Positions 1-13,610 of a DNA stretch of 64,000 nucleotides are shown here, in pieces. Positions within the stretch are counted from its first letter, which is position 1. Each line of letters starts with the position of its first letter. The notes beneath the pieces were generated by a model, which did no database searches, had not been told where the DNA came from, and was given only the letters and a program-made list of their open reading frames with translations. Both the position numbers and the translations under genes were made by a program. The DNA comes from an uncultured Eubacteriales bacterium (GTDB lineage: Bacteria; Bacillota; Clostridia; Oscillospirales; CAG-272), in contig CAKRSS010000002.1 in NCBI GenBank assembly GCA_934401725.1, positions 1 through 64,000 of the forward strand, written 5' to 3'.

Positions 1-1241
1 GTGTTAAGATAATCGGCACCGACTGCGACGCCATCGAGCGCGCCGAGAACCGCGATGTGTTCGAAAAGCTGCTGCTTGACCTCGGAATCCCCGAGCCACG
101 CGGCAAGGCGGTGACAAAAATCGAGGACGGCGTCAGAGTTGCGGACGAGATCGGCTACCCTGTTCTGGTGCGCCCCTCCTTCGTGCTGGGCGGTCGCGCT
201 ATGCAGATAGTCGCCGACGAGGCGGGACTGCGGCACTACCTCAAGACTGCTGTTGAAATTGACGAAGAGCGGCCGGTGCTTGTCGACAAGTACATCGTCG
301 GCAAGGAGGTTGAGGTCGACGCGATATGCGACGGGCACGACGTCTTTGTGCCCGGTATCATGGAGCTTGTCGAGCGTACGGGCATACACAGCGGCGACAG
401 CATCAGCGTCTACCCGCCGTTCAGCATATCGGATAAGGTCAAGGGCGTGATACTCCAGTACGCCAAGCGGCTTGGCCTTGCCATCGGCATACGCGGACTG
501 TTCAATATTCAGTTCATAGTCGACAGGAACGACCAGGTGTTTATCATCGAAGTAAACCCGCGCTCCTCTCGGACCGTGCCATTCCTCTCGAAGGCGACCG
601 GCTACAGCCTCGCCGACATCGCAACCGAGGTCATACTCGGCAAGTCGCTCAAGGAGCAGGGGATATTCACAATCTACCCCGACGAGAGAGCGCGCCACTA
701 TGTCAAGGTCCCCGTCTTCTCGTTCAGCAAGATAACCGGCGTCGACGCTTCGCTCTCGCCCGAAATGAAGTCGACAGGCGAGGCAATCGGCTATGACGAC
801 CGCCTCAACCGCGCGCTGTACAAGGCGCTCCAGGCGTCGGGCATGAAGCTGCACAACTACGGAACCGTGTTCGTCACGGTTTGCGATGCCGACAAGCCGG
901 AGGCGCTGCCGCTTATCCGCCGCTTCTACAACCTCGGCTTCAACATCGAGGCAACCGAGGGCACGGCGCTCTTCCTTAAGCACAACGGCATACGCACGCG
1001 CATTCTGCGCAAAATAGGCGAGGGCTCGGACGACATACAGAACGCCCTCTGCCAGGGACACATCACCTATGTCGTAAACACCGGCGACGTTTCGGTGTCG
1101 GCGCAGAACAGCGACGGCTACCGTATCCGCCAGATCGCGACAGAAAACAATATCACGATGTTCACATCACTCGATACCGTCCGCGTCCTGCTCGACGTTC
1201 TCGAGGAAACGACATTCGCCGTATCGACCATCGATTCTTAA
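1..1241 (+). CDS. carB: carbamoyl-phosphate synthase large subunit, C-terminal portion (5' end lies outside the window)
   Basis: An open frame enters from the window edge. The protein has ATP-grasp and MGS-like C-terminal signatures (LVRPSFVLGGRAM, IEVNPRSSRTVPF). Pyrimidine genes follow. Confidence 0.85.
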   Translation, partial: VKIIGTDCDAIERAENRDVFEKLLLDLGIPEPRGKAVTKIEDGVRVADEIGYPVLVRPSFVLGGRAMQIVADEAGLRHYLKTAVEIDEERPVLVDKYIVGKEVEVDAICDGHDVFVPGIMELVERTGIHSGDSISVYPPFSISDKVKGVILQYAKRLGLAIGIRGLFNIQFIVDRNDQVFIIEVNPRSSRTVPFLSKATGYSLADIATEVILGKSLKEQGIFTIYPDERARHYVKVPVFSFSKITGVDASLSPEMKSTGEAIGYDDRLNRALYKALQASGMKLHNYGTVFVTVCDADKPEALPLIRRFYNLGFNIEATEGTALFLKHNGIRTRILRKIGEGSDDIQNALCQGHITYVVNTGDVSVSAQNSDGYRIRQIATENNITMFTSLDTVRVLLDVLEETTFAVSTIDS

Positions 1242-1252
1242 AGGAGGCGTCG

Positions 1253-1984
1253 ATGAAGCAAGTATTTTATGAAGTGACCGGCAACCGTCAACTGGTGCCG
1301 GGGATATTCGAGCTGAGGCTTACCGGAGACACGTCGGCGGTCGTGCGGCCGGGGCAGTTTGTCAACCTGAAGATCGACGGCTGCTATCTGCGCCGCCCGC
1401 TGTCGGTGTGTGACCGGCGCGACGACGGCCTGACGCTCATTTACAAGGTCGTCGGCCGCGGAACCGAAATACTGTCGGAAATGAAAGCAGGCGCTGTTAT
1501 CGACACGCTGTCGGGGCTCGGAAACGGATTTGACGTGAGCGCGTCGGGCGAGTGGCCGCTGCTTGTCGGTGGCGGCGTCGGCGTGCCGCCTATGTACTGG
1601 CTGTGCCGCGAGCTTATAGACTGCGGCAGGCAGGTGACGGTGGTGCTCGGCTTCAATTGTGCCCCGGAGGTGTTCTATCGCGAGAAATTTGAGGCACTCG
1701 GCGCGCGCGTCATTGTTACGACGGCGGACGGCAGCGCCGGTGTGCGCGGCTTTGTCACCGATGCGGTGAGAATGCTGGATTACACCTATTTTTACGCCTG
1801 CGGCCCCGAGCCCATGTTCCGGGCGCTCGACGCAGTTGTCAAGACCGAGGGCGAGTACAGCTTTGAGGCGCGCATGGGCTGCGGCTTCGGCGCTTGTATG
1901 GGCTGCTCCTGCAAAACCAAATACGGCTACAAAAGAATCTGCCGCGACGGACCCGTCATGCGGCGGGAGGAGGTAATATGGTGA
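1253..1984 (+). CDS. pyrK: dihydroorotate dehydrogenase electron-transfer subunit
   Basis: 243 aa. FAD/NAD-binding fold with a C-terminal Cys cluster (CGFGACMGCSCKT). It lies immediately upstream of pyrD and shares a 7-nt overlap with it. Confidence 0.8.
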   Translation: MKQVFYEVTGNRQLVPGIFELRLTGDTSAVVRPGQFVNLKIDGCYLRRPLSVCDRRDDGLTLIYKVVGRGTEILSEMKAGAVIDTLSGLGNGFDVSASGEWPLLVGGGVGVPPMYWLCRELIDCGRQVTVVLGFNCAPEVFYREKFEALGARVIVTTADGSAGVRGFVTDAVRMLDYTYFYACGPEPMFRALDAVVKTEGEYSFEARMGCGFGACMGCSCKTKYGYKRICRDGPVMRREEVIW

Positions 1985-2895
1985 GCACGGCTGTAACGCT
2001 CTCGGGCTGGGAGCTTGATAACCCCGTCATTCCGGCAAGCGGCACGTTTGGGTATGGCCTCGAGTTTGCCGAGCTTTACGACATAAACCGCCTCGGTACT
2101 TTCTCGTTCAAGGGCACGACCGAGGAGGCGCGATTCGGCAACCCGCTGCCGCGGATTGCCGAATCCACGGCAGGCATAATAAACTCGATAGGGCTTCAGA
2201 ATCCCGGCGCGGATCACGTCATAGCGCACGAGCTGCCGGAGCTCAAAAAGGTCTTTCACAAAAAAGTGATAGCCAACATCGGCGGCGCAACCACGGATGA
2301 ATACGTCCGCCTCGCCGACCGATTCAGTCGTGAGGAGCAGGTGGGGCTGCTCGAGATAAACATCAGCTGCCCTAACGTCAAGCACGGAGGCATGGCGATG
2401 GGGACGTCTCCCGAACTTGCCTATGAGGTGACGCGCGCCGTCAAGGCCGTGGCGGGCAAGCCGGTATATATGAAGCTCTCGCCCAACGTGACGGACATAA
2501 CCTGCATCGCGCGCGCCTGCGAGGAGGGCGGAGCCGACGGCATCAGCATGATAAACACGCTGACAGGTATGCGGATTGACCCGGCGCGCCGCCGCCCGGT
2601 CATAGCGAACAAAATAGCCGGATACGCAGGTCCGGCGCTGTTCCCGGTCGCGCTGGCGATGGTGTGGCGCGTGTATGAAGCGGTGAGCATCCCCATCATC
2701 GGTATGGGCGGAGTCAGCACAGCCGAGGATGTAATCGAGATGATGCTTGCCGGTGCGACGGCTGTCGAGGTCGGTGCCGCCAACCTGCTCGACCCCTACG
2801 CCTCGCTGCGCATAGTCGAGGAGCTGCCCGCGGTCATGAAAAAATACGGAATCGAAAATCTCAGAGATATAACAGGAGGAGCACACAATGGATAA
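1978..2895 (+). CDS. pyrD: dihydroorotate dehydrogenase catalytic subunit (class 1B)
   Basis: ATG at 1978 is preceded by GGAGGAGG. The protein carries class 1B DHODH signatures (MVSTAVTLSGWELDNPVIPASGTFGYG, NTLTGM). Confidence 0.9.
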   Translation: MVSTAVTLSGWELDNPVIPASGTFGYGLEFAELYDINRLGTFSFKGTTEEARFGNPLPRIAESTAGIINSIGLQNPGADHVIAHELPELKKVFHKKVIANIGGATTDEYVRLADRFSREEQVGLLEINISCPNVKHGGMAMGTSPELAYEVTRAVKAVAGKPVYMKLSPNVTDITCIARACEEGGADGISMINTLTGMRIDPARRRPVIANKIAGYAGPALFPVALAMVWRVYEAVSIPIIGMGGVSTAEDVIEMMLAGATAVEVGAANLLDPYASLRIVEELPAVMKKYGIENLRDITGGAHNG

Positions 2896-3589
2896 CAAGG
2901 TCATAATTGCGCTGGATTTTGACAGCGCGCAGAAGGTTTACGGATTTCTCAACAAATTCGGAGACCGCGAGCTTTTTGTCAAGGTCGGCATGGAGCTGTA
3001 CTATGCGGAAGGCCCCACGATAATCCGCGAGATTAAAAAGCGCGGCCACAAAATCTTCCTCGACCTCAAGCTGCACGACATTCCGAACACTGTAAAGAAG
3101 GCCATGCACGTGCTGTCCGGTCTTGATGTTGACATGTGCAATCTTCACGCCTCGGGTACGCGCGAGATGATGGAGGCGGCGCTCGAGGGACTTACGCGCG
3201 CGGACGGCAGCCGCCCGCTGCTCATCGCGGTGACGCAGCTGACCAGCACCGACGAGCGCGCGCTGCACGAGGAGCTGCTTATCGAGCGCCCGATGAAAGA
3301 GGTCGTTATGTCCTATGCGGCGCGGGCCAAGGATGCCGGGCTTGACGGCGTGGTCTGCTCGCCGATGGAATCCGCCGCGGCGCACGAGAGATGCGGCAGT
3401 GGCTTTCTGACAGTGACGCCCGGCGTACGTTTTGCAGACGGCGACAAGGGCGATCAGAAGCGCGTCATGACGCCCGCCGAGGCACGCAGAATCGGCTCGG
3501 ACTACATCGTCGTCGGCCGTCCGATAACGGCGGCAGCTGACCCGGTAGCGGCATATGACCGCTGTGTAAGCGAATTTTCCGGTAACTGA
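2888..3589 (+). CDS. pyrF: orotidine 5'-phosphate decarboxylase
   Basis: 233 aa. OMP decarboxylase motifs are present (IIALDF, FLDLKLHDIPNTV). It overlaps the pyrD stop. Confidence 0.9.
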   Translation: MDNKVIIALDFDSAQKVYGFLNKFGDRELFVKVGMELYYAEGPTIIREIKKRGHKIFLDLKLHDIPNTVKKAMHVLSGLDVDMCNLHASGTREMMEAALEGLTRADGSRPLLIAVTQLTSTDERALHEELLIERPMKEVVMSYAARAKDAGLDGVVCSPMESAAAHERCGSGFLTVTPGVRFADGDKGDQKRVMTPAEARRIGSDYIVVGRPITAAADPVAAYDRCVSEFSGN

Positions 3590-3596
3590 GGAGGAT

Positions 3597-4244
3597 ATGA
3601 TAGTGGAAGCAACAAACGAACGCATAGCACGCGAGCTATTGTCGATCCGCGCGGTATTTTTCCGTCCGAACGAGCCGTTCACCTGGGCGAGCGGCATAAA
3701 AAGCCCGGTTTACTGCGATAACCGACTTATTCTTACCGCGCCCGAAGTCAGAGGCGACGTCGAGCACGCCATAGCCGAGACGGTAAAGCGCGAATATCCC
3801 GACACAGAGGTGCTCATGGGAACCTCGACTGCGGGAATCGCACATGCCGCCATTGCGGCTGAAATACTCGGCCTCCCCATGGGATATGTCCGCTCGGGAG
3901 CCAAGGATCACGGTCGTCAGAATCAGATTGAGGGGCGGCTGGAGCCGGGGCAGAAGGTCGTCGTGATTGAGGATCTTATCTCGACCGCAGGAAGTGTGCT
4001 CGAGGTTGTCGAGGTGCTGCGCGCTGCCGGTGCCGAGGTGCTCGGAATCGTGAGCATATTCACCTACGGCATGAAAAAGGGACTCGACAGACTCGCCGCG
4101 GCCGGCGTGCGCAACGTCAGCCTTACCGATTTTGACACCGTTGCCCGCATTGCCGGAGAGCAGGGCTACATCGCGCCCACGGACGTCCGCCGCCTGCTCG
4201 CCTTCCGCGACAATCCCTCGGACGAGAGCTGGATAGGAGCGTGA
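3597..4244 (+). CDS. pyrE: orotate phosphoribosyltransferase
   Basis: 215 aa. PRTase motif (VVVIEDLISTAGS) with an OPRTase-type N-terminus. Confidence 0.9.
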   Translation: MIVEATNERIARELLSIRAVFFRPNEPFTWASGIKSPVYCDNRLILTAPEVRGDVEHAIAETVKREYPDTEVLMGTSTAGIAHAAIAAEILGLPMGYVRSGAKDHGRQNQIEGRLEPGQKVVVIEDLISTAGSVLEVVEVLRAAGAEVLGIVSIFTYGMKKGLDRLAAAGVRNVSLTDFDTVARIAGEQGYIAPTDVRRLLAFRDNPSDESWIGA

Positions 4245-5336
4245 TGACATATCAAAAACGTAATTGATATTCTTGACCTGTCAGTCGGCGAGATTGACCG
4301 GCTTATCGAGACCGCGGAGGACATTTCGGCAAATCCTCAGAAATACGATGACGCGATGAAGCACCGCACGCTTGCGGCGCTGTTTTTCGAACCGTCGACG
4401 CGTACGCGGCTCAGCTTTGAGTCGGCGATGCTGTCGCTCGGCGGCAATGTCATAGGCTTTTCCGACGCCGCCACCTGCTCGGCGACCAAGGGAGAAACGC
4501 TGGCGGACACCGTCACCGTCGTGTCGGGCTACGCCGACATTATCGCCATGCGTCACCCCAAAGAGGGCGCGCCGATTGTGGCGTGCGAGCATGCATATGT
4601 TCCCGTCATAAACGCTGGCGACGGCGGGCATTATCACCCCACTCAGACGCTCGCCGACCTGCTTACGATAAAGCATGAAAAGGGAAGGCTCGACAACCTG
4701 ACCGTCGGCTTCTGCGGAGACCTCAAGTACGGCAGAACCGTCCACTCACTCATAGACGCCATGGCGCGCTATCCCGGTATTCGCTTTGTCCTGATTTCTC
4801 CGGACGAGCTGAAGCTGCCCGATTTTGTGCTCGACGGCACCATCCGGCGGCACGGAATTCCGTTTGTCGAGAGCGCCTCGCTCGAGAGTGAGATAGGCGG
4901 GCTTGACATTCTGTACATGACGCGCGTCCAAAAGGAGCGCTTTGACGACCTTGGGACTTATGACCGGCTTAAAGACGTCTACATCCTGACCGAGGAAAAA
5001 ATGAAGATGGCCAGGTCCGACATGATAGTCATGCACCCGCTGCCTCGCGTCAACGAAATTCCCGCATCCATCGACCGCGACCCGCGCGCCTGCTATTTCA
5101 AGCAGACCGTCAACGGTAAGCTGATGCGCATGGCGCTCATACTAAAGCTCTTTGCCGAGCGCGAGCTGCCCGACGTTGACAGAAGAAAGGGAAGCCCCGC
5201 CGCGTACGACGGAGTGTGCCGGAATGTGCACTGCATCACCGCCTCTGAGCGCTGGCTCGAGCCCGGCTTCTACCGTGACCCGGACGGCGTCCTCCACTGC
5301 GCCTACTGCGACGCGGTTGTCACTGAGAACGAATAA
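4244..5336 (+). CDS. pyrB: aspartate carbamoyltransferase catalytic chain with a C-terminal PyrI-like zinc domain; apparent frameshift at the 5' end
   Basis: STRTR and HPTQ motifs are present. A continuous frame runs from 4248 with an ATCase-like N-terminus (NVIDILDLSVGEIDRLIETAED) but has no in-frame start codon. An ATG at 4244 overlaps the pyrE stop but is one base out of frame across an A5 run at 4254-4258. The C-terminal ~60 aa carry CxxxxC...CxxC with NVHCITASE, matching the PyrI zinc domain. Confidence 0.8.
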
Positions 5337-5338
5337 AA

Positions 5339-5378
5339 GCATCAAAGACCCCGGATTTCCGGGGTCTTTGATGCTTTC
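5339..5378 (+). terminator. intrinsic terminator after pyrB
   Basis: A 16-bp inverted repeat (GCATCAAAGACCCCGG / CCGGGGTCTTTGATGC) is followed by a short T run. Confidence 0.6.
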
Positions 5379-5462
5379 ACACAAAATTCATATTTTTGTT
5401 CCCGTTACGACACATACTTATTATACAATCTGAAATACATACATTAAGGAGAAAAACACGAC

Positions 5463-7286
5463 ATGAAAGAAGTAAAATCCCCACGCAAGCCGTTGTTGTA
5501 TTACTACATTATCGTTCTGATGGTGATACTGTTTTTTAACATGGTAGTCTCGCCGCTGCTGACGAGCGTAAAGGTGCAGGAGGTCGATTACGGAACCTTC
5601 ATGAAGATGATTGAGGAGAAGAACATCGGCAGCGTCGAAGTCAATGACTCCGAGATAGTCTTCACAGACAAGGAAGAAAAGCAGATATACAAGACGGGCG
5701 CTATGAACGATCCCGGCCTTACCGACCGTCTTTATGGTTGTGGAGCGCCATTCTCCAGCAGTACTGATAAGACCATGTCCCCGCTGCTAAGTCTCTTCCT
5801 GACTGTCATACTTCCTATTCTGATATTCTTCGGAATCGGACAGTATATGAGCAAAAAGCTGATGTCGCAGGCGGGCGGTCCCAACGCCATGGCCTTCGGT
5901 ATGGGTAAGAGCAACGCCAAGGTTTACGTTCCTTCGACGGACGGAATAAAGTTTGACGATGTCGCGGGCGAGGATGAGGCCAAGGAGAGCCTCGCCGAGG
6001 TCGTCGACTACCTGCACAACCCGCATAAATACACCGACGTCGGCGCGTCCATGCCCAAGGGCGTGCTGCTCGTAGGCCCTCCCGGCACAGGTAAGACTAT
6101 GCTCGCAAAGGCTGTCGCAGGCGAGGCGGGCGTGCCGTTCTTCTCCATTTCCGGCTCTGATTTTGTCGAAATGTTCGTCGGCATGGGCGCGTCCAAGGTG
6201 CGCGACCTGTTCCGTCAGGCCAAGGAGAAAGCCCCCTGCATCGTCTTTATCGACGAGATAGACGCGATAGGCAAAAAGCGCGAAGGCCAGCTCGGCGGCA
6301 ACGACGAGCGCGAGCAGACGCTCAACCAGCTCCTCACCGAAATGGACGGCTTTGAGGGCAACAACGGCGTCATAATACTCGCCGCCACCAACCGTCCCGA
6401 GTCGCTCGACCCGGCGCTGACGCGTCCCGGACGCTTTGACCGCCGGGTTCCCGTTGAGCTACCCGACCTTGCCGGACGCGAGGCCATTCTCCGCGTTCAT
6501 GCAAAGAAAATCAAGACTGCGGACAATGTTGACTTCCACACCATCGCCCGCATGGCGTCCGGAACCTCCGGCGCCGAGCTTGCGAATATCATAAACGAAG
6601 CGGCGCTGCGCGCCGTGCGCAGCGGGCGCACGGTCGTTGAGCAGGCAGATCTCGAGGAGAGCATCGAGGTTGTTATCGCGGGATACCAGAAGAAGAACGC
6701 CATCATGACGGATGCCGAAAAGAAGGTCGTGGCGTATCACGAGATAGGTCACGCGCTTGTGGCCGCGCTTCAGACTGATTCCGCGCCGGTTCAGAAGATA
6801 ACCATCATCCCGCGCACCTCGGGCGCGCTCGGCTATACGATGCAGGTCGAGCAAGGCGACAAGGTGCTGATGACCAAAAAGGAAATCGAGAACAAGATCG
6901 CCACCCTCACGGGTGGTCGCGCGGCAGAGGAGCTTATTTTCGGCGAGATTACGACCGGAGCCTCCAACGATATTGAGCAAGCAACCAAGCTCGCCCGCGC
7001 CATGATAACCCGCTACGGCATGACCGACGAGTTCGACATGGTGGCCATGGAAACGGTGACGAACCAGTACCTCGGCGGCGACACCACGCTTGCGTGCTCG
7101 GCAGATACGCAGAAGGAGATTGACCGAAAGGTTGTCGAGACGGTGCGTACACAGCACGAAAAAGCACGCCGCCTGCTCTCCGAGAATCGCGGCAAGCTCG
7201 ACGAGCTGGCATCCTTCCTCTACGAGAAGGAAACCATAACCGGCAGTGAATTCATGACCATCCTCAAGTCGGAGGAGGGTGAGTGA
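5463..7286 (+). CDS. ftsH: ATP-dependent zinc metalloprotease FtsH
   Basis: 607 aa. N-terminal TM helices, Walker A (GPPGTGKT), AAA second region of homology, and an HEIGHAL zinc site. Confidence 0.95.
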
Positions 7287-7287
7287 T

Positions 7288-7830
7288 ATGAGAAGACGTT
7301 CGGGCATTGACTGGCTCGCGTTAGTGCTCGGAATCCTGCTTACGGCGCTCGGAGTATTCACGCTTGTCCGCCCTGACGGAGCGCTGACGTGGGTCAGACT
7401 CGTGTACGGCCTCGGCGCTATCACAATGGGTGTGCGTGACGTGGTGGTATACATCCGCATAGCGCGCTTTACCGGATTCGGCCCTATGCTTTCGTTGATT
7501 TCGGGCATACTCAGCGTTATGTGCGGCGCTATGCTCGTCGCCAATCCCGGACTTAGCCGTCGGGCGCTGACGGTGCTGCTCCCGGTGTGGTTCATAGCCC
7601 ACTGCATATACGGCCTGACACATGCAGGCTTGATACGCCTCTCGGGACGGCGCGTACTTTATTTTGCCTCGCTCGTACTGAACATTCTCGGACTGATACT
7701 CGGTTTTCTCATGCTCCTCAGTCCCGCGCTGTCATTTATGACGCTCCGGGTCGTAGGCTACATGGTAGCGTTCTACCTCATCGTGTTCGGCGTCGAATAC
7801 GTTGTGTCGGCCTTTGACAGCTGGGATTGA
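7288..7830 (+). CDS. small integral membrane protein, HdeD/DUF308-like
   Basis: About 180 aa with 5-6 predicted TM helices and no catalytic motifs. The family call is by architecture only. Confidence 0.45.
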   Translation: MRRRSGIDWLALVLGILLTALGVFTLVRPDGALTWVRLVYGLGAITMGVRDVVVYIRIARFTGFGPMLSLISGILSVMCGAMLVANPGLSRRALTVLLPVWFIAHCIYGLTHAGLIRLSGRRVLYFASLVLNILGLILGFLMLLSPALSFMTLRVVGYMVAFYLIVFGVEYVVSAFDSWD

Positions 7831-7852
7831 TTATAATTGTCATAATTTTGAT

Positions 7853-7889
7853 GCCCCGGAGCCGATTGCGGCGGCTCCGGGGCGTTTTT
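7853..7889 (+). terminator. intrinsic terminator
   Basis: Hairpin GCCCCGGAGCC...GGCTCCGGGGC followed by TTTTT. Confidence 0.85.
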
Positions 7890-7901
7890 GTACGGTTTTT
7901 A

Positions 7902-7930
7902 TTGACAAGAGGACGGGGAAGAGATATAAT
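7902..7930 (+). promoter_or_regulatory. consensus sigma-A promoter for the islet operon
   Basis: TTGACA, a 17-nt spacer, then TATAAT. A GGAGGA RBS follows 40 nt downstream, ahead of the ATG at 7976. Confidence 0.7.
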
Positions 7931-7975
7931 AATATTCGAAGATATTGACATTTTGGATTTTGGAGGATTATATCT

Positions 7976-10399
7976 ATGACCGGCGCACAGATTGGCATTA
8001 TACGCTTTCTGCTTATCGCGTCTTTGGCTTTCATTGTTGTTCCGATAATTGTGTATATTGTCAGGGACATTACGTCAAGACTGTCTGATGGTTCGGGGCG
8101 GAATCTTGGTGTGAGTAAAATGCTCAAGTTCACCGCCTGCCTGCTTGGATCTATCTGGTGCCTGCGCTATGCAGTAGGATTTTATGCTATTGTCGTCGGA
8201 AATGATGGTGCCCCTACACTTACGTGGGGGGAAGAAATATTCAACAGCATCGTTCACACGCTGCAGACCTTCAGTATGGACGAGGACTACACCGAGTATA
8301 TCATAGACGGCAAAGATATGCTTCGGGCAGTGGCAGGAGGCAGCGGGACATGGCAGGATGTGTACGGAATATATGCGTCCGTGCTTAATTTTATCGCACC
8401 CGTTGTCGGAGGAGCTATCATATTCGAGATTCTTGCAAGCATATTTCCAAAAGTCAGGCTGTGGCTGCTTTCGTTTGCGGTTTGGCGTAAAAAGTATTAT
8501 TTCAGCGAGTTGAATGAAGCATCAGTTGCGCTGGCGACGAGTGTTTGCCGTGCAAATAAAGGCCTTTGGCGGCGACCGATTATAATTTTTACAGATTCCT
8601 ACGTGAATGCGCAGGAGGAGGGCGACTCCGAGATGCTCCTTGAGGCAAAGTCACTCGGCGCTATTTGCGTTAAAGACGATCTCTCACATATTGTCAAAGC
8701 AAGGCATGGCGAGCGCAGCTTTTTTCTCATGGATCAGGCGCCGGTCGGTAACATACAGTCCCTGACCACACTGTCCGACAATCAGAACTGCAAATATCTT
8801 AAAAATGCAGAGATATACATGTTCATGACCAATGATGCGTATGTTCAGGTGGAGCAAAATGTGCGGAACCGATTGAAGAATGATATGAAATTCGAGAATG
8901 GGGAATTACCGGTGTTCATACCGGTAAACAGTTACCGAAATCTTATCTCAAACATGTTGGTGGACATTCCGCTTTACGAGCCGTTGATAAATAAGGTAAC
9001 TGTCGGCAAGACTGTCGATCTTGTCCTGACCATTCTCGGTGTCGGTGATATCGGTACGGAAATGTTTCTGTCGTCGTATTGGTTTGGCCAGATGCTTAAT
9101 TGCAGGCTTACCATAAATATAGTTTCCAATGAGCTGGAAGATACCTTCTGGAATCGCATAGATTATATCAATCCGGAGATACGCAGGACAACTATGGAAA
9201 ACGATTCAATACTTGAGTATAACAGTCGCAAGGATCAATCTCCCGTTTACTGCAAGGTCAACTATGTCTACTGCGACATAAATTCGTCAGAATTTGTAAA
9301 GAGGCTGAATCCGGGAGAGGGGAGTCTCCTTGATACAGACTATTTCTTTGTGGCACTTGGCTCGGACAAGGAAAATCTGTCTGCTGCAAGCACACTGCGC
9401 AGATATGTAGGCAAATATCACCTTAGCGAAGGCTGTAATCGTCAGACGGTAATCACATACGTTGTATACAACCCCGAGCTGTCCGAGATTCTCAACAGAA
9501 CGAAATACTATTTTTATTCGTCTGATGGCTATAAAAATTCGGTTGGCGATACCGAGGCGGATGTGTATATGTGCGCGGTCGGAAGTCTCCATGAGGTGTA
9601 CGGCGCGCGGAATGTATTCATGACAGATCACGAGGACAATGCTCAGGCCATTGATCTGAGACGCCGTTCAGAAAGCGAGGACAGGCAAACATTCGAAGCC
9701 GTCAGTGACTATGAGAAGAAAAGGCACGGAACAAAGGCAAGCACTGAGCGCGAGCAACGACGGATCAGAGCGGCGGTGCACAGCAAGCGTATGAATGATG
9801 ATTATCAGCATTGGGCGAATCTCGCACGTACCATGCACCGCAAGTACAAGCTGTTTTCCATGGGGCTTCTGACAGGCTGTTCTATTTTTGACGAGGCACG
9901 GTCGCCGCAGTACGAAGTTGCCGCGGTCAAAGAGGCGTACAAGGTCATATATGAAGGCGGTAAAAACCACGAAAACGCAGCTGAGCATGACAAATGGCTG
10001 AGACTTATGCACAGCATGTCGTGGCTCGAGCATAGACGCTGGTGCGCGTTTACACGTGTTAAGGGTTTCCAGGGAACGGATAAATACAGCTTATACATTG
10101 AGAAAGAGGAGTCCCACAGGCAAATGGATCTTAGATTGCACCCTTGCTTAGTCGAGTGTGGGAAACAGGGAATACGCGCAAAGATCAAGGATGACGGAAC
10201 TATTGATGACAATGCAATTATCGAGTACCCCGACAAGACCCCGCTTGACAGACTGGATGAATTATCGGATCACGTTAAGCCAATAATCATTGAAATCAAG
10301 CAAAGGCAGAAGGATGATAAAGGTAGCAAAGATGATCCTAAGCCTAACGATCTTGACTTCAAGGTGAGCGATTACCCTTTCAATGATTTTAAGCTTTAA
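7976..10399 (+). CDS. 807-aa membrane protein: MthK/RCK-like channel homolog with a divergent filter, plus Rossmann (KTN-like) domain(s) and a large C-terminal domain
   Basis: N-terminal layout: TM helix, then TM / putative pore helix with T-x-x-T-F-S-M-D-E-D-Y / TM. The cytoplasmic region has a GxGxxG motif (LVLTILGVGDIGTEMF) followed about 20 aa later by an acidic residue ending a strand (TINIVSNE), typical of NAD-binding KTN/TrkA_N domains. About 45% GC in a ~60% GC genome. Confidence 0.55.
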   Translation: MTGAQIGIIRFLLIASLAFIVVPIIVYIVRDITSRLSDGSGRNLGVSKMLKFTACLLGSIWCLRYAVGFYAIVVGNDGAPTLTWGEEIFNSIVHTLQTFSMDEDYTEYIIDGKDMLRAVAGGSGTWQDVYGIYASVLNFIAPVVGGAIIFEILASIFPKVRLWLLSFAVWRKKYYFSELNEASVALATSVCRANKGLWRRPIIIFTDSYVNAQEEGDSEMLLEAKSLGAICVKDDLSHIVKARHGERSFFLMDQAPVGNIQSLTTLSDNQNCKYLKNAEIYMFMTNDAYVQVEQNVRNRLKNDMKFENGELPVFIPVNSYRNLISNMLVDIPLYEPLINKVTVGKTVDLVLTILGVGDIGTEMFLSSYWFGQMLNCRLTINIVSNELEDTFWNRIDYINPEIRRTTMENDSILEYNSRKDQSPVYCKVNYVYCDINSSEFVKRLNPGEGSLLDTDYFFVALGSDKENLSAASTLRRYVGKYHLSEGCNRQTVITYVVYNPELSEILNRTKYYFYSSDGYKNSVGDTEADVYMCAVGSLHEVYGARNVFMTDHEDNAQAIDLRRRSESEDRQTFEAVSDYEKKRHGTKASTEREQRRIRAAVHSKRMNDDYQHWANLARTMHRKYKLFSMGLLTGCSIFDEARSPQYEVAAVKEAYKVIYEGGKNHENAAEHDKWLRLMHSMSWLEHRRWCAFTRVKGFQGTDKYSLYIEKEESHRQMDLRLHPCLVECGKQGIRAKIKDDGTIDDNAIIEYPDKTPLDRLDELSDHVKPIIIEIKQRQKDDKGSKDDPKPNDLDFKVSDYPFNDFKL

Positions 10400-10725
10400 T
10401 GAGCAGAAGGGAAAACATACAAATGGGATATAAACCAAACCCGGTTGATACCAGCAATATCCGTTTGCCGGATTCTCTAATCGAGCTGACTGAAAAAATA
10501 GCCGAAAACGTCCATGAAAACTGGTCGTACGGGCGTGTGTCAGAGGGTTGGAGCTACGGCGAGCAGCGTGACGATTCAAAAAGAACGACGCCTTGCCTTG
10601 TCCCATATGACGAGCTGAGCGAGGAAGAGAAGAATTATGACAGACATACTGCGATAGAAACGCTCAAACTTATAATTGCGCTGGGTTACAGAATTGAAAA
10701 GGACACGGACAAATACATCTCATGA
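10399..10725 (+). CDS. stand-alone RyR (ryanodine-receptor Ryr repeat) domain protein
   Basis: 108 aa matching the bacterial RyR domain consensus (AENVHENWSYGRVSEGWSYGEQRDDSKRTTPCLVPYDELSEEEKNYDR...LGYRI). Its start overlaps the upstream stop (TAATG). Confidence 0.65.
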   Translation: MSRRENIQMGYKPNPVDTSNIRLPDSLIELTEKIAENVHENWSYGRVSEGWSYGEQRDDSKRTTPCLVPYDELSEEEKNYDRHTAIETLKLIIALGYRIEKDTDKYIS

Positions 10726-10808
10726 ATTAATGAGGGCTATACCCGGTAGTTGTAAAATAAAGAGTCCCGGACAGAATCAAAACGATTTTTGGTGGAACTC
10801 TTGTTCAC

Positions 10809-11030
10809 TCAACTTCGATTCCAATGGTTGAGCTTTGGCAGTTGCGCTTCGAAGAAAGCCCGCGCTTCCTCCGGCGGCCAATTGTCGTTTGACATGTGTT
10901 TTACGAGAAAATCGATCAGCTTCTCAAGGCTTGTGTAAACAAATTTGCCGTCGGTATAGCACCATTTGCAGTACTCCTCGTTGAATGTGCCGTCCGGCTC
11001 TTTGCTGATTGTCGAGTCGTCCAGCGGCAT
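10809..11030 (-). CDS. small zinc-ribbon domain protein
   Basis: 73 aa with CKWCY and a Cys-pair architecture common to small Clostridia zinc-ribbon proteins. Low GC. Confidence 0.45.
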   Translation of the reverse strand: MPLDDSTISKEPDGTFNEEYCKWCYTDGKFVYTSLEKLIDFLVKHMSNDNWPPEEARAFFEAQLPKLNHWNRS

Positions 11031-11341
11031 TCGAATATGACATCTTTTGCTTCCATAATTTTCATCACCTCGTGAATATTATATCACTGCCTTACAGCAA
11101 AGTAAAGCAACCCGCTGTTGCTAAAATTATTGCCCAAAATATCGCGGCGACGTTATCTTATTCTACCGGTACATCCACAGTAATGATGCCCGTTGCAAGC
11201 CCTGCGCTCTCCGGCAAGAGCGTGAGTGAGAACGTGCGATAGTTCATGTGTTATAATGAGACGCTTGTCATTTTCCGCAGCGGCGGATGTTGTTTCCTGA
11301 ATGAAAATCGGCGGCAAGCGCCGCCGGGTACCGGAGGTAAT

Positions 11342-11848
11342 ATGAGGTTACTATTTGAGATGGATAAACGCGATTACGATAATTGCACCAATAAATTCGT
11401 GCGCAATTCGGCAAGAAGCATAATAATCCGCGACAAAAGGCTGGCAATGATACACAGCTTAAAATACGACTATTACAAATTTCCGGGCGGCGGAATTGAG
11501 GGTGAGGAATCACCCGTCAGTGCGATGATACGCGAAACCCGCGAAGAGGCGGGCCTGGCGGTAAAGCCCGAAACGGTAAAAGAATACGGCTATGTGCATC
11601 GCGTACAGAAAAGCAATAGGGACGCCTCCGAATGCTTTGCCCAGGATAACTATTACTACCTTTGCAACGTTGAGAACGCAACTGTTGCACAGCACCTTGA
11701 AAAATATGAAGCAACCGAAAACTTCACTTTGGAGTATGTTGAACCGCTCATTGCAATTCAAAAGAATCGTAGTATCCCGCATGATTCCTTAATGCTTGAG
11801 CGAGAAGCGCGGGTTATCGAAATGCTGATTGACGAGGGACTGCTGTAA
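11342..11848 (+). CDS. NUDIX hydrolase
   Basis: Nudix box GGGIEGEESPVSAMIRETREEAGL. The ATG at 11342 is preceded by GGAGGT. Low GC. Confidence 0.8.
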   Translation: MRLLFEMDKRDYDNCTNKFVRNSARSIIIRDKRLAMIHSLKYDYYKFPGGGIEGEESPVSAMIRETREEAGLAVKPETVKEYGYVHRVQKSNRDASECFAQDNYYYLCNVENATVAQHLEKYEATENFTLEYVEPLIAIQKNRSIPHDSLMLEREARVIEMLIDEGLL

Positions 11849-11861
11849 TTACAGGCTTCTA

Positions 11862-12533
11862 TCATCCGCATTTCTTGCAGACGCGGCTCTTACCCGCCGC
11901 GACAGCGTCGGACTGCGTGCCGCTTATGATATCCGTCGAATTTTTGAGTGCACTGCACCCGCGGCTGACATGCCAGACGCTGCCGCTATTTGTCCAATAA
12001 ACGGTGGCTCCGTTCGGTATTGTGGTAAAGATGTCGGGCTCGAGGGTCTCGCGCGCAGTCGTGGTTGAGCCGGTCGTAGTTTCGGCCGGAGCGGTAGTAG
12101 TTTCAGCCGGAATGGTCGGAGTTGTGGTCTCGCCCTGCGGCGGGGCTACGGTGTTATCACGGTCATATTCCGTGGTTGTCACTTCGGAATGCTTGGTGGT
12201 CTCTTCGGGAGTGGTGACGGTATCGGGAGCTTTGGTTGTCCCGGGTGTCGTGGTATTGGGGGTAGTCGTGGTCTCGGGGACTGTGGCGGTGTCGGGGGTG
12301 GTCGTCACTTTATCGGTTTCGGGCTTGGGAGCCGTCGTTTTGGCCGCTTCCTTTGAGCTTGCCGCCGCGGCAGATGACGACGCCAGCTCGCGCGATATTT
12401 CGGCAACATAATCCGGAGTAAGCGTAACGCCGGACGAATCGGATGTATCCTTAAAGTCGTCGTATACGAACGAGCAACCGGTGAACATGTACATCAGAAT
12501 AATCAACGCAGTGAGATTTCTCAAAACTTTCAT
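11862..12533 (-). CDS. lipoprotein with a long Thr/Pro-rich linker and a small C-terminal Cys-containing domain
   Basis: Signal peptide plus lipobox (LIILMYMFTGCS). About 120 aa of T/P/E low complexity. The C-terminal region reads VYWTNSGSVWHVSRGCS...RVCKKCG. Confidence 0.6.
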   Translation of the reverse strand: MKVLRNLTALIILMYMFTGCSFVYDDFKDTSDSSGVTLTPDYVAEISRELASSSAAAASSKEAAKTTAPKPETDKVTTTPDTATVPETTTTPNTTTPGTTKAPDTVTTPEETTKHSEVTTTEYDRDNTVAPPQGETTTPTIPAETTTAPAETTTGSTTTARETLEPDIFTTIPNGATVYWTNSGSVWHVSRGCSALKNSTDIISGTQSDAVAAGKSRVCKKCG

Positions 12534-12535
12534 TC

Positions 12536-13432
12536 TTACATTTCCTCCGTCTCAGTCAGCATACGCTCAAGAAGATTGACCTTGTCGGCCGAATATTCAT
12601 AAGCGCCGCGGTAATTATTTGTCTCCTTCGAGCATATCTCGAGGTCAAAAAATACGTTGTAAAGAACAGGGTCGGGAATACGCTCCTGCATTGAAAGTAT
12701 GCTGTGCAGCCTGCGCTGCGCCTCGGTGTAGTCGTGCCGACGGATTGCGTCGCGCGCTGCGATGTGCGTCGAGAGTGGGGAGGACTGCTCCATGTTGCAG
12801 CTGTCGAGCAGTGAGCTGACTGGTATTTCCGGATGCGCCTCGGATGCCTCAAGCACCATGATGTATTCACAAATCCGGTCGTTTGCAGCCGCAGAGCGGT
12901 TAATATTTGAATCCGTGACGTCAGTCATGAGCGTCGCAGATATTTTGTGCATATAGTGCTGATACACAAGCGCCTGCGCGCGGACGGCGCCGTCGCCGTA
13001 TATCGTTTTTGCGTCGTACTCGCGAGCCTCGTCAAAACGGCGCATGGCTGAGCGGAGTCTGCCGTAAAAAAAGTCGTCCTTCGCAAGTCCGAGCAGGCAC
13101 TGCGCGAGTATCATGTTGATCTCGTCATCCTCGCCTCCGAGCGAGAGACATAGGTCGCGGCATATGGCAAAATCGCCGTCGGTAAGCGCACGCTTTATGT
13201 TGCCGATGCCGTTGATTTTGCGGTAAATATATTCGTCATCGCCCTCAGATAGCAGGTAGCCGACGGGCACCTTCAGCCTTCCCGCAAGGTAGGTGACGGT
13301 GGACAGGGAAGGCATCGCCGCGCCGTTTTCAATGCGGCTGAGCATGTTGCGCGTGATGCAGTCGCCGGCAAGCTGCGATTGGGTCATGCACTTCGCAAGA
13401 CGTATTTCTTTGATTTTTTCACCTATCTTCAT
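12536..13432 (-). CDS. XRE-family HTH transcriptional regulator with a TPR-like C-terminal domain (Rgg/RNPP-like architecture)
   Basis: N-terminal HTH_3 (MTQSQLAGDCITRNMLSRIENG) and an alpha-helical repeat C-terminus of about 230 aa. Confidence 0.7.
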   Translation of the reverse strand: MKIGEKIKEIRLAKCMTQSQLAGDCITRNMLSRIENGAAMPSLSTVTYLAGRLKVPVGYLLSEGDDEYIYRKINGIGNIKRALTDGDFAICRDLCLSLGGEDDEINMILAQCLLGLAKDDFFYGRLRSAMRRFDEAREYDAKTIYGDGAVRAQALVYQHYMHKISATLMTDVTDSNINRSAAANDRICEYIMVLEASEAHPEIPVSSLLDSCNMEQSSPLSTHIAARDAIRRHDYTEAQRRLHSILSMQERIPDPVLYNVFFDLEICSKETNNYRGAYEYSADKVNLLERMLTETEEM

Positions 13433-13610
13433 CCAACATCCCCCGTAAGTAATTTTCTGACCATAACTCCGAAAGTTTTATGCCACGATAAGCATACCAC
13501 AAATCGACCTGATTTTCAAGTTTTTTATACACAATTTTTCAAAAACTCTTTCCCATCGACCGAAAATGTTGTATAATAGAGTGGCAGGATTTCAAGAAAG
13601 GCAGAATACA

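Follow-up and report, generated by a model that had tools for sequence, protein, structure and literature searches.

What does a stretch of low guanine-plus-cytosine (GC) content, about 4 kb long, do in an otherwise GC-richer clostridial chromosome, and do its genes belong together? The segment occupies positions 7890-11860 of a 64-kb stretch of DNA (positions 1 to 64,000 of contig CAKRSS010000002.1, assembly GCA_934401725.1; here called the window) from an uncultured Eubacteriales bacterium (Oscillospirales, CAG-272). A first-pass annotation, made from the sequence alone, read it as one horizontally acquired cassette of four genes, encoding a channel-like protein of 807 amino acids (aa), a RyR-domain protein, a zinc-ribbon protein, and a NUDIX hydrolase, and marked it as the most likely place for an undescribed system. 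Open reading frame (ORF) calls and Pfam searches recovered all four genes as described. The single cassette did not survive: the genes fall into three transcription units, and only the pair formed by the 807-aa gene and the RyR gene is a conserved module. We propose that this pair, isolated in this genome, serves a conflict system as a membrane effector gated by a nucleotide, and we regard the proposal as evenly poised between right and wrong.

The pairing recurs across species. Scanning one genome per species yielded 80 loci with a homolog of the 807-aa protein, all from Clostridia (metagenome-assembled genomes and isolates from gut and rumen), the best of them 48% identical. Genes were called and clustered for 76 related loci, for which the neighborhood counts given here are raw. 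Where the downstream sequence is long enough (73 loci), 27 homologs are followed by a small RyR gene, and two more are fused to one, about 40% in all. Fusions carrying PF02026 (827 to 899 aa) also make up 7 of the 120 best database homologs of the 807-aa protein. A broader rule, that every homolog of at least 850 aa is an RyR fusion, was discarded, as the RyR hidden Markov model gives just two fusions among the genome loci. Within the window, the segment is laid out as follows.

7853-7889, plus strand: intrinsic terminator of the ftsH-DUF308 gene pair and left boundary of the low-GC segment (perfect 12-bp stem, T5)
7902-7930, plus strand: sigma-70/SigA-type promoter of the two-gene operon (TTGACA-17-TATAAT, 12/12)
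7976-10399, plus strand: gene for the 807-aa orphan membrane protein ('BIG') that anchors the module
7976-8470, plus strand: its N-terminal membrane domain (aa 1-165), a candidate pore module
8295, plus strand: site of a 1-bp deletion in conspecific strains, with a frameshift at about codon 107
8483-9595, plus strand: two tandem Rossmann (RCK/TrkA-N-like) domains (aa 170-540)
9743-10396, plus strand: putative divergent RyR-type repeat at the C terminus (aa 590-807)
10423-10725, plus strand: small single-repeat RyR-domain protein, 100 aa (PF02026, E 5.6e-37)
10809-11030, minus strand: Zn_ribbon_2 protein, 73 aa (PF12674, E 1.9e-21)
11342-11848, plus strand: NUDIX hydrolase, 168 aa (PF00293, E 4e-11)

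The terminator and the textbook sigma-A promoter that had been annotated were both borne out. In the terminator, two 12-bp arms (7853-7864 and 7872-7883) pair perfectly around a 7-nt loop, with T5 behind them, and the promoter is the sole perfect site of its type within 7200-12700. The RyR gene starts at 10423, 23 nt past the stop codon of the 807-aa gene and behind an AAGGGA ribosome-binding site; an alternative ATG at 10399 overlaps that stop codon. The functional unit is the bicistronic operon at 7902-10725. The zinc-ribbon gene lies convergently on the minus strand with a promoter-like site of its own (11106-11078), and for the NUDIX gene, an extended −10 element of its own (TGnTATAAT) and a GGAGG ribosome-binding site are present. 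No Rfam element was found within 7000-13600.

The larger partner belongs to a family without a name. The 807-aa protein has no match in Pfam, NCBIfam, PADLOC, or the sequences of the Protein Data Bank (PDB), and a profile built from 26 homologs gave nothing meaningful against all PDB sequences. Nothing like it appeared in the literature searched, in keeping with the expectation that an undescribed system might be found here. Its homologs form 438 clusters at 90% identity; at 50% identity, a search of 1.84 billion representatives gave no fewer than 545 clusters (E <= 1e-30). Those with a name are 'hypothetical protein' from Clostridia; the closest is 48-52% identical, and database searching returned none above 52%.

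The predicted fold suggests a channel, which fits the earlier 'channel-like' guess. An AlphaFold2 model of the protein has pLDDT 77.6 and pTM 0.75. In aa 1-165, three hydrophobic helices surround a short amphipathic helix and an acidic loop (LTWxEEIFNSxVHALQTFSMDEDY), with P142, G145-G146, and P158 in the third hydrophobic helix. Across 97 family members, conservation extends to E86, S91, F99, S100, (D/E)102, E103, (D/E)104, and Y105, to the P142, G145-G146, and P158 of the inner helix, to a Rossmann GxGxxGxE motif, and to an acidic residue at position 386. In the second Rossmann domain, these last elements read G355-x-G357-x-x-G360-x-E362 plus the acidic residue 386. The protein has the tandem RCK (Rossmann) gating domains of RCK-gated K+ channels, and Foldseek aligned the model over its whole length to Slo1 and Slo2.2 with a probability of ~1.0. 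Superposed on the MthK pore, the N-terminal domain aligns 77 of 82 residues at 2.4 A, a weak indication of a pore. The loop TLQTFSM may resemble the TLESWSM filter of bacterial sodium channels. Charged, low-confidence, lineage-specific insertions occur at aa 551-589 and ~770-790 (9626-9742 and 10283-10345); homologs of ~757 aa lack both, which accounts for the extra 50 residues of the protein encoded in the window.

Conservation in the family peaks in the C-terminal domain, where W683-L-E-H686-R-R-W689, R694, G697, and H722-P-C-L-V-E727 are kept in at least 96 of 97 members. Pfam PF02026 finds no match in this C terminus, and a direct hhalign comparison with the small RyR protein is weak (E 0.0056, probability 6.5%); the same alignment nonetheless brings the RyR signature motifs HxxW, G[FW], and PCLV into exact register. 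A 596-aa paralog, encoded upstream of a protease gene in ~8 loci, provides a bridge. Its C terminus (LEHRRWNAYMRAEGY...RNDLAKMHHDLV...L..EEKRKD) aligns both with the 807-aa domain (hhalign probability 96.9%, E 1.5e-10) and with the small RyR protein (probability 70%, E 4e-5). By this transitive relation, we therefore treat aa ~590-807 as a putative divergent RyR repeat with an insertion.

The assignment of the small partner is firmer. It matches PF02026 over profile positions 1-91 of 91 with 126.3 bits, against a cut-off of 27.4 (E 5.6e-37), and its profile finds a 'putative ryanodine receptor' from Bacteroides thetaiotaomicron in the PDB (3NRT, E 7e-44) as well as animal RyR repeats. The 28 RyR partners are 57-72% identical to the window copy; the channel-like proteins are just 30-50% identical. 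All or nearly all of the 28 RyR orthologs keep H39, W42, R57, and D81, and the invariant H39, W42 (+3), and D81 (+42) have the spacing of the phage proteins, a correspondence mapped by published spacing rather than by alignment. The phage PF02026 protein RyDEP hydrolyzes 2'/3' cyclic ADP-ribose (cADPR) with a His/Asp dyad, the adenine stacking on a Trp at His +3 (PMC13232231). The RyR passages of a preprint describe RyR Tad as a nanomolar sponge for 1''-3' gcADPR, 1''-2' gcADPR, and cADPR, and animal RyR Repeat12 as an ATP- and drug-binding metabolic sensor (doi 10.64898/2026.06.04.730250). Cellular RyR-domain proteins and membrane partners are not discussed in the RyDEP paper (PMC13232231), nor do they figure in the RyR passages of the RyR Tad preprint (doi 10.64898/2026.06.04.730250). 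Phage members reach no more than 50% identity to the small RyR protein, and that over half the length. On two fecal virome scaffolds of doubtful viral identity, labeled 'UNVERIFIED Bacteriophage sp.' (MT837259.1, 11061-11354; MT836850.1, 7046-7348; our loci L107 and L108), an RyR gene 60-64% identical to that of the window stands without a channel-like gene. A third such scaffold, with the same label and equally doubtful (MT835673.1, 16368-18458; L109), encodes a 696-aa relative of the 596-aa paralog among bacterial-looking genes.

Immune-type genes keep company with the module elsewhere. A ~1170-aa protein with AAA_2, AAA, and Peptidase_M41 domains and no transmembrane (TM) segments is encoded immediately upstream of the homolog in 28 loci; among the 62 loci whose upstream sequence is long enough, 29 (about 47%) have it within the operon. 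In 14 loci, the operon includes a gene for a CARF4-PD-D/ExK nuclease (PADLOC, E 5e-30). TIR proteins account for 7 of 76 downstream proteins, TIR-NACHT, TIR-kinase, and Tubulin_2-TIR proteins are also encoded as same-strand neighbors, and a TIR-TM2 gene lies directly upstream in three loci; overall, about 10 of the 76 related loci have a TIR gene. Further neighbors encode SIR2, a calcineurin-like phosphoesterase, and a nucleotide pyrophosphatase, and PADLOC matches among the neighbors include SAVED_TIR, ThsB, PD-T4-6, mads, and PtuA/AriA components. The association with immune-type genes is real but partial.

A larger conserved cluster occurs in other Clostridia at the loci that we label L026, L028, L045, L054, L055, and others (for example, L054:1448-13066). 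It encodes, in this order, proteins of ~300 and ~90 aa, two of ~157 aa (YbjN-like by eye), the CARF4-PD-D/ExK nuclease, optionally the 596-aa paralog (whose RyR C terminus is more canonical), the double-AAA/M41 protease, the channel-like protein, and RyR. PADLOC does not catalog this cluster as a system.

The protease association has an echo in the window, where ftsH (5463-7286) stands two genes upstream of the module; in 28 loci, a homolog comes right after the FtsH-derived double-AAA/M41 protease, which is ~40% identical to the FtsH of the window over 500 aa. The chance of random placement within two genes downstream of ftsH is, by a rough estimate, ~0.1-0.2%. We rejected ftsH itself as a member of the system: it is a housekeeping ortholog, 86-89% identical and accompanied by DUF308 in sister species that lack the module. 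These relatives (Huintestinicola and 'Ruminococcus sp. CAG:563'-type Oscillospiraceae) always have DUF308 next, followed by unrelated genes. The adjacency may be coincidence or a functional or recombinational link.

How might such a module work? The 807-aa protein would be an oligomeric ligand-gated cation channel, its N-terminal TM/pore-helix/acidic-loop/TM module forming a P-loop-like pore with an acidic mouth, and its two RCK-type Rossmann domains, one with an intact dinucleotide-binding GxGxxG...D/E motif, forming a cytoplasmic gating ring. The putative C-terminal repeat keeps the His-x-x-Trp and His-Pro-Cys-Leu-Val motifs that would contact a ligand. The 100-aa RyR protein may dock on this repeat and so complete a two-fold, 'Repeat12'-like nucleotide pocket, a role that we suggest because natural fusions point to such pairing; alternatively, it may buffer or hydrolyze the ligand. 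The ligand itself could be an NAD+-derived adenine nucleotide, that is, ADP-ribose (ADPR), an isomer of cADPR, or NAD+ itself. Its binding would open the pore and collapse ion gradients, and the infected cell would stop growing. In many other Clostridia, the module would be linked to genes that make or destroy signals and to additional effectors (TIR, SIR2, CARF nuclease, NUDIX, phosphoesterases, and the double-AAA/M41 protease), and the stand-alone version here might sense directly or listen to signals made elsewhere. The analysis itself establishes the linkage of the genes, the similarities of fold, the conserved motifs, and the neighborhood statistics; channel activity, the ligand, and a role in defense are inferred. 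The most specific form of the proposal is that of a cation channel gated by a TIR- or SIR2-derived NAD+ metabolite (a cADPR isomer or ADPR) through a Repeat12-like pocket made by the C-terminal repeat and the 100-aa subunit. In that detail, we think it quite unlikely to be correct.

Strain variation indicates that the 807-aa gene is under selection where it is whole. Intact alleles differ by three synonymous and no nonsynonymous changes. A 1-bp deletion at 8295 falls inside the conserved DEDYTEY motif, outside any homopolymer, and is present in two independent metagenome assemblies (L097 and L098), in which gene callers split the frame into products of 109 and 693 aa. Constraint on intact alleles together with a circulating frameshift therefore suggests a gene that is functional where intact but dispensable. 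An apparent truncation of RyR in L097 was dismissed as a mutation because it coincides with a scaffold gap.

Several results count against an immune effector built on a channel. The 807-aa protein has no Ion_trans_2 or TrkA_N match in Pfam, hhalign of its family against a manually entered MthK sequence came back empty, and the K+ selectivity filter TVGYG is absent, its place taken by TFSMDEDY, a loop that is acidic family-wide. In the small RyR protein, Thr64 stands at +25, where phage and animal proteins have a phosphate-binding His, and the ligand may therefore differ. PADLOC-DB 2.0 contains no family matching either the 807-aa protein or RyR, and neither protein has a Pfam or PADLOC match to ThsA models (SLOG or Macro sensor). 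Searches of the 64-kb window by phmmer with TIR, SIR2, CARF-nuclease, phosphoesterase, and other partner queries found none; for TIR, three proteins from related loci were run against the six-frame ORFs of the window without finding a homolog. BLAST of the window proteins against the locus proteins returned no protease relative besides ftsH. The module therefore stands alone here, with no signal source visible. Among the 76 related loci, moreover, 46 lack an RyR partner, 31 lack RyR and the protease alike, and housekeeping genes make up many of the flanks. Divergence between strains is similarly low in the helix-turn-helix (HTH) and pot genes, and the signal of recent spread is therefore not specific.

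These 31 loci and the common housekeeping flanks speak for a role outside immunity, as a physiological cation channel or a regulator of transporters, in which the Rossmann and RyR domains would read the ATP, ADP, or NAD(H) state of the cell and thereby control ion homeostasis, and the immune neighbors would be incidental. Tandem RCK/TrkA-N domains are standard gating rings of housekeeping K+ systems, animal Repeat12 is a metabolic sensor of ATP and drugs according to the RyR passages of a preprint (doi 10.64898/2026.06.04.730250), and the strong constraint on intact alleles would suit such a role. We nevertheless consider it unlikely, given a family so patchy that its nearest members are 48-52% identical and that it is missing beside ftsH-DUF308 in sister species, a frameshift allele in circulation, a filter-like loop that is acidic rather than TVGYG, and the recurrence of TIR, SIR2, CARF-nuclease, and AAA-protease genes in the same operon. 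The weakness of the pore evidence also leaves room for a membrane-anchored enzyme in place of a channel. Its C-terminal domain (E685, H686, R687, R688, W689, H722, C724, and E727) would then act as a glycosidase or hydrolase on ADPR-type nucleotides, and the module would remove or convert a nucleotide signal, as an immune regulator or as anti-defense, rather than execute a response. RyDEP shows that an RyR repeat can act as a His/Asp glycosidase (PMC13232231), and the C-terminal domain is both the most conserved part of the protein and rich in invariant polar residues. The whole architecture, however, fits channels built of a TM pore, RCK1, and RCK2, and the acidic loop and Gly-Gly hinge of the membrane domain are conserved. 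The 807-aa family has no relatives in IMG/VR viral contigs or PLSDB plasmids, an absence that argues against a counter-defense gene of mobile elements. A phage or plasmid origin was likewise rejected, the sole match being a 27% identical, partial one on a bacterial-looking 'UNVERIFIED Bacteriophage sp.' scaffold. We judge the enzyme very unlikely, and a signal-removing module very unlikely with it.

Did the segment arrive from elsewhere? The reported low-GC islet of ~4 kb is real: GC is 46.3% in 7890-11860 and 54.2% in the rest of the window, and among all 4-kb intervals (mean 53.6%, standard deviation 2.2%), this is the minimum, ~3.3 standard deviations low, with 500-nt stretches inside it spanning 42% to 51%. 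Flanks near 60% GC, as first described, were found on the left (positions 1-7000, the pyr-ftsH region, 57-63%) but not on the right, where the xpt/pot region has only ~50-58%; the contrast is therefore sharper on the left side. The 807-aa, RyR, and NUDIX genes have third-position GC values of 0.54, 0.51, and 0.52, respectively, compared with 0.67 ± 0.07 for 56 other genes of the window, placing three of the four segment genes ~2 standard deviations under the genes of this genome. The zinc-ribbon gene, at a host-like 0.65, is the exception to atypical codon usage. A tetranucleotide signature had been suggested as a further check; normalized for base composition, tetranucleotide usage of the segment is not distinctive. 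The segment is compositionally foreign by GC and codon usage, the zinc-ribbon gene excepted.

We consider horizontal acquisition probable on balance. Composition supports that part of the earlier claim, as does the absence of the segment after ftsH-DUF308 in the two nearest sampled species (FtsH 89% and 86% identical), the orthologous-locus comparison that had been suggested. The ftsH-DUF308 block is the only one shared with these sister species, however, and synteny is broken on both sides of it, so that absence in relatives is weak evidence for an insertion. The flanking direct repeats that might have marked one were sought, and only chance-level repeats of 12-20 nt were found; there is no integrase or other mobility gene among the window ORFs, and no tRNA turned up, although no dedicated tRNA scan was run. 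All conspecific contigs spanning the site carry the segment. These facts, and the featureless tetranucleotide usage, would suit a native, AT-richer stretch of fast-evolving accessory genes in a rearrangement-prone spot, where the GC dip would be uninformative. So would the family at large, whose members track host GC (31-57%) and average just 1.8 points under their flanks. We take a native stretch seriously but think it rather unlikely. Here, the deficit is 7.4 points, among the largest in a family whose loci are lower in GC than their surroundings in 46 of 61 cases (p 6e-6). The segment is the GC minimum of the window with low third-position GC in three of four genes, and no homolog above 52% identity is known. 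Between two strains, moreover, the 807-aa gene diverges by 0.37%, versus 1.2-1.85% in the ftsH and pyr genes. The segment was probably recently acquired or reshuffled, and its four genes did not arrive as one cassette. At the left boundary, a contig of a 92.6%-identical sister lineage (GCA_963617985.1, L099) aligns at its positions 9478-9505 with 7898-7925 of the window and ends 27 nt beyond the boundary; its −35 box has diverged to TGCTCA from TTGACA.

The two remaining genes of the segment appear to be bystanders. The zinc-ribbon gene lies within the low-GC stretch and outside the module: no zinc-ribbon homolog was found beside the 807-aa family in other species, its cluster comprising the window and conspecific contigs only. 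The NUDIX gene is an independent gene that shares the low GC. Its family has more than 4000 homologs, of which copies 73-80% identical are solitary, in unrelated contexts and never beside the 807-aa family, and NUDIX makes up 2 of 76 downstream proteins at related loci. On these grounds, it was rejected as the module's conserved ADPR hydrolase; as a nucleotide-diphosphate hydrolase, it is thematically compatible with the module, though no conserved partner. Between strains, the NUDIX gene shows 12 nonsynonymous and 4 synonymous differences. In PADLOC-DB 2.0, NUDIX weakly matches PDC-S07 (E 5e-7) and the zinc ribbon weakly matches PDC-S19 (E 1.4e-3), both single-gene candidates.

Strain-variable hot spots coincide with the NUDIX gene (11342-11848, 3.35%) and a gene for a Thr/Pro-rich lipoprotein (11862-12533, 5.95%), in surroundings of 0.3-1.9%. 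Just outside the islet and beside the lipoprotein gene, a 298-aa XRE-type HTH protein is encoded on the minus strand (12536-13432), with weak PADLOC matches to HTH_VI, RmrA, and CapH-like. At our locus L002, the HTH and lipoprotein genes are called as a single 476-aa product across a scaffold gap.

RyR repeats have, to our knowledge, been without a known function for decades. Two preprints of mid-2026 changed this, describing phage versions that bind or cleave cyclic ADP-ribose immune signals (PMC13232231 and, in its RyR passages, doi 10.64898/2026.06.04.730250). If the module is a nucleotide-gated immune effector, it would represent a new sensor class for nucleotide-signaled bacterial immunity and define a family of at least 545 clusters (50% identity), all now annotated 'hypothetical'. 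It would also offer a small, tractable system for asking if channel gating is coupled to NAD+-derived nucleotides through RyR repeats, a question still open for animal ryanodine receptors. Were the channel gated by cADPR, it would be the host-side counterpart of phage RyR-domain sponges and a prokaryotic precedent for the long-debated coupling of cADPR to ryanodine receptors in animals. Even a homeostatic channel would be a new RCK-gated family with a non-K+ filter.

Bacterial immunity already has nucleotide-activated membrane effectors, among them the TM effectors of Thoeris and CBASS. More broadly, nucleotide-sensing membrane effectors are known from Thoeris, CBASS, Pycsar, and type III CRISPR; an RCK and RyR sensor on a host channel-like protein is undescribed in the libraries and literature that we searched. 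The closest parallel in proposed logic is Cap1, a CARF-TM effector of type III CRISPR, in which, according to passages of a preprint (doi 10.1101/2025.11.13.688252), a soluble nucleotide sensor joined to a membrane pore depolarizes the cell. The genomic company of related loci (CARF nuclease, TIR, SIR2) is similar to that of such effectors. The sensor here, in contrast, would consist of RCK and RyR domains rather than CARF, SAVED, SLOG, or Macro, neither module gene matches PADLOC, and no signal synthase is linked to it in the window.

With RyDEP (PMC13232231) and RyR Tad (doi 10.64898/2026.06.04.730250, RyR passages), the small RyR protein shares a single PF02026 repeat, a similar size, an expected dimeric habit, and, by spacing, the His-x-x-Trp and Asp that serve 2'/3' cADPR. 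Those proteins are phage-encoded counter-defense sponges or glycosidases, whereas the window RyR is chromosomal, between ftsH-DUF308 and xpt/pot. It also differs in standing in an operon with a large membrane protein (and in being fused to it in relatives), in having a partner family without relatives in viral collections, and in carrying Thr in place of the phosphate-binding His. Its closest solved relative is the single-repeat protein of B. thetaiotaomicron (PDB 3NRT, 4N05, and 6UAG; E 7e-44 over the full length), likewise a stand-alone bacterial repeat of ~100 aa, whose deposited name assigns no function, no literature search having been aimed at it.

The 807-aa protein differs from the prokaryotic MthK and GsuK and the animal Slo1 and Slo2.2, despite its RCK-type fold, in having no relation to them at the sequence level, TFSMDEDY in place of their TVGYG filter, an extra N-terminal TM helix, an extra helix past the loop, and a putative RyR-type C-terminal domain. 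Animal ryanodine receptors and the oomycete PKDRR (PMC7399828) are, as we propose for the module, cation channels carrying RyR repeats, and Repeat12 of the animal receptors binds adenine nucleotides. The pore and gating domains of the 807-aa protein are unrelated to the RyR/IP3R superfamily, and one divergent repeat plus a separate subunit would stand here for two tandem pairs. PKDRR shows that an unrelated P-loop channel can acquire RyR repeats by grafting (PMC7399828).

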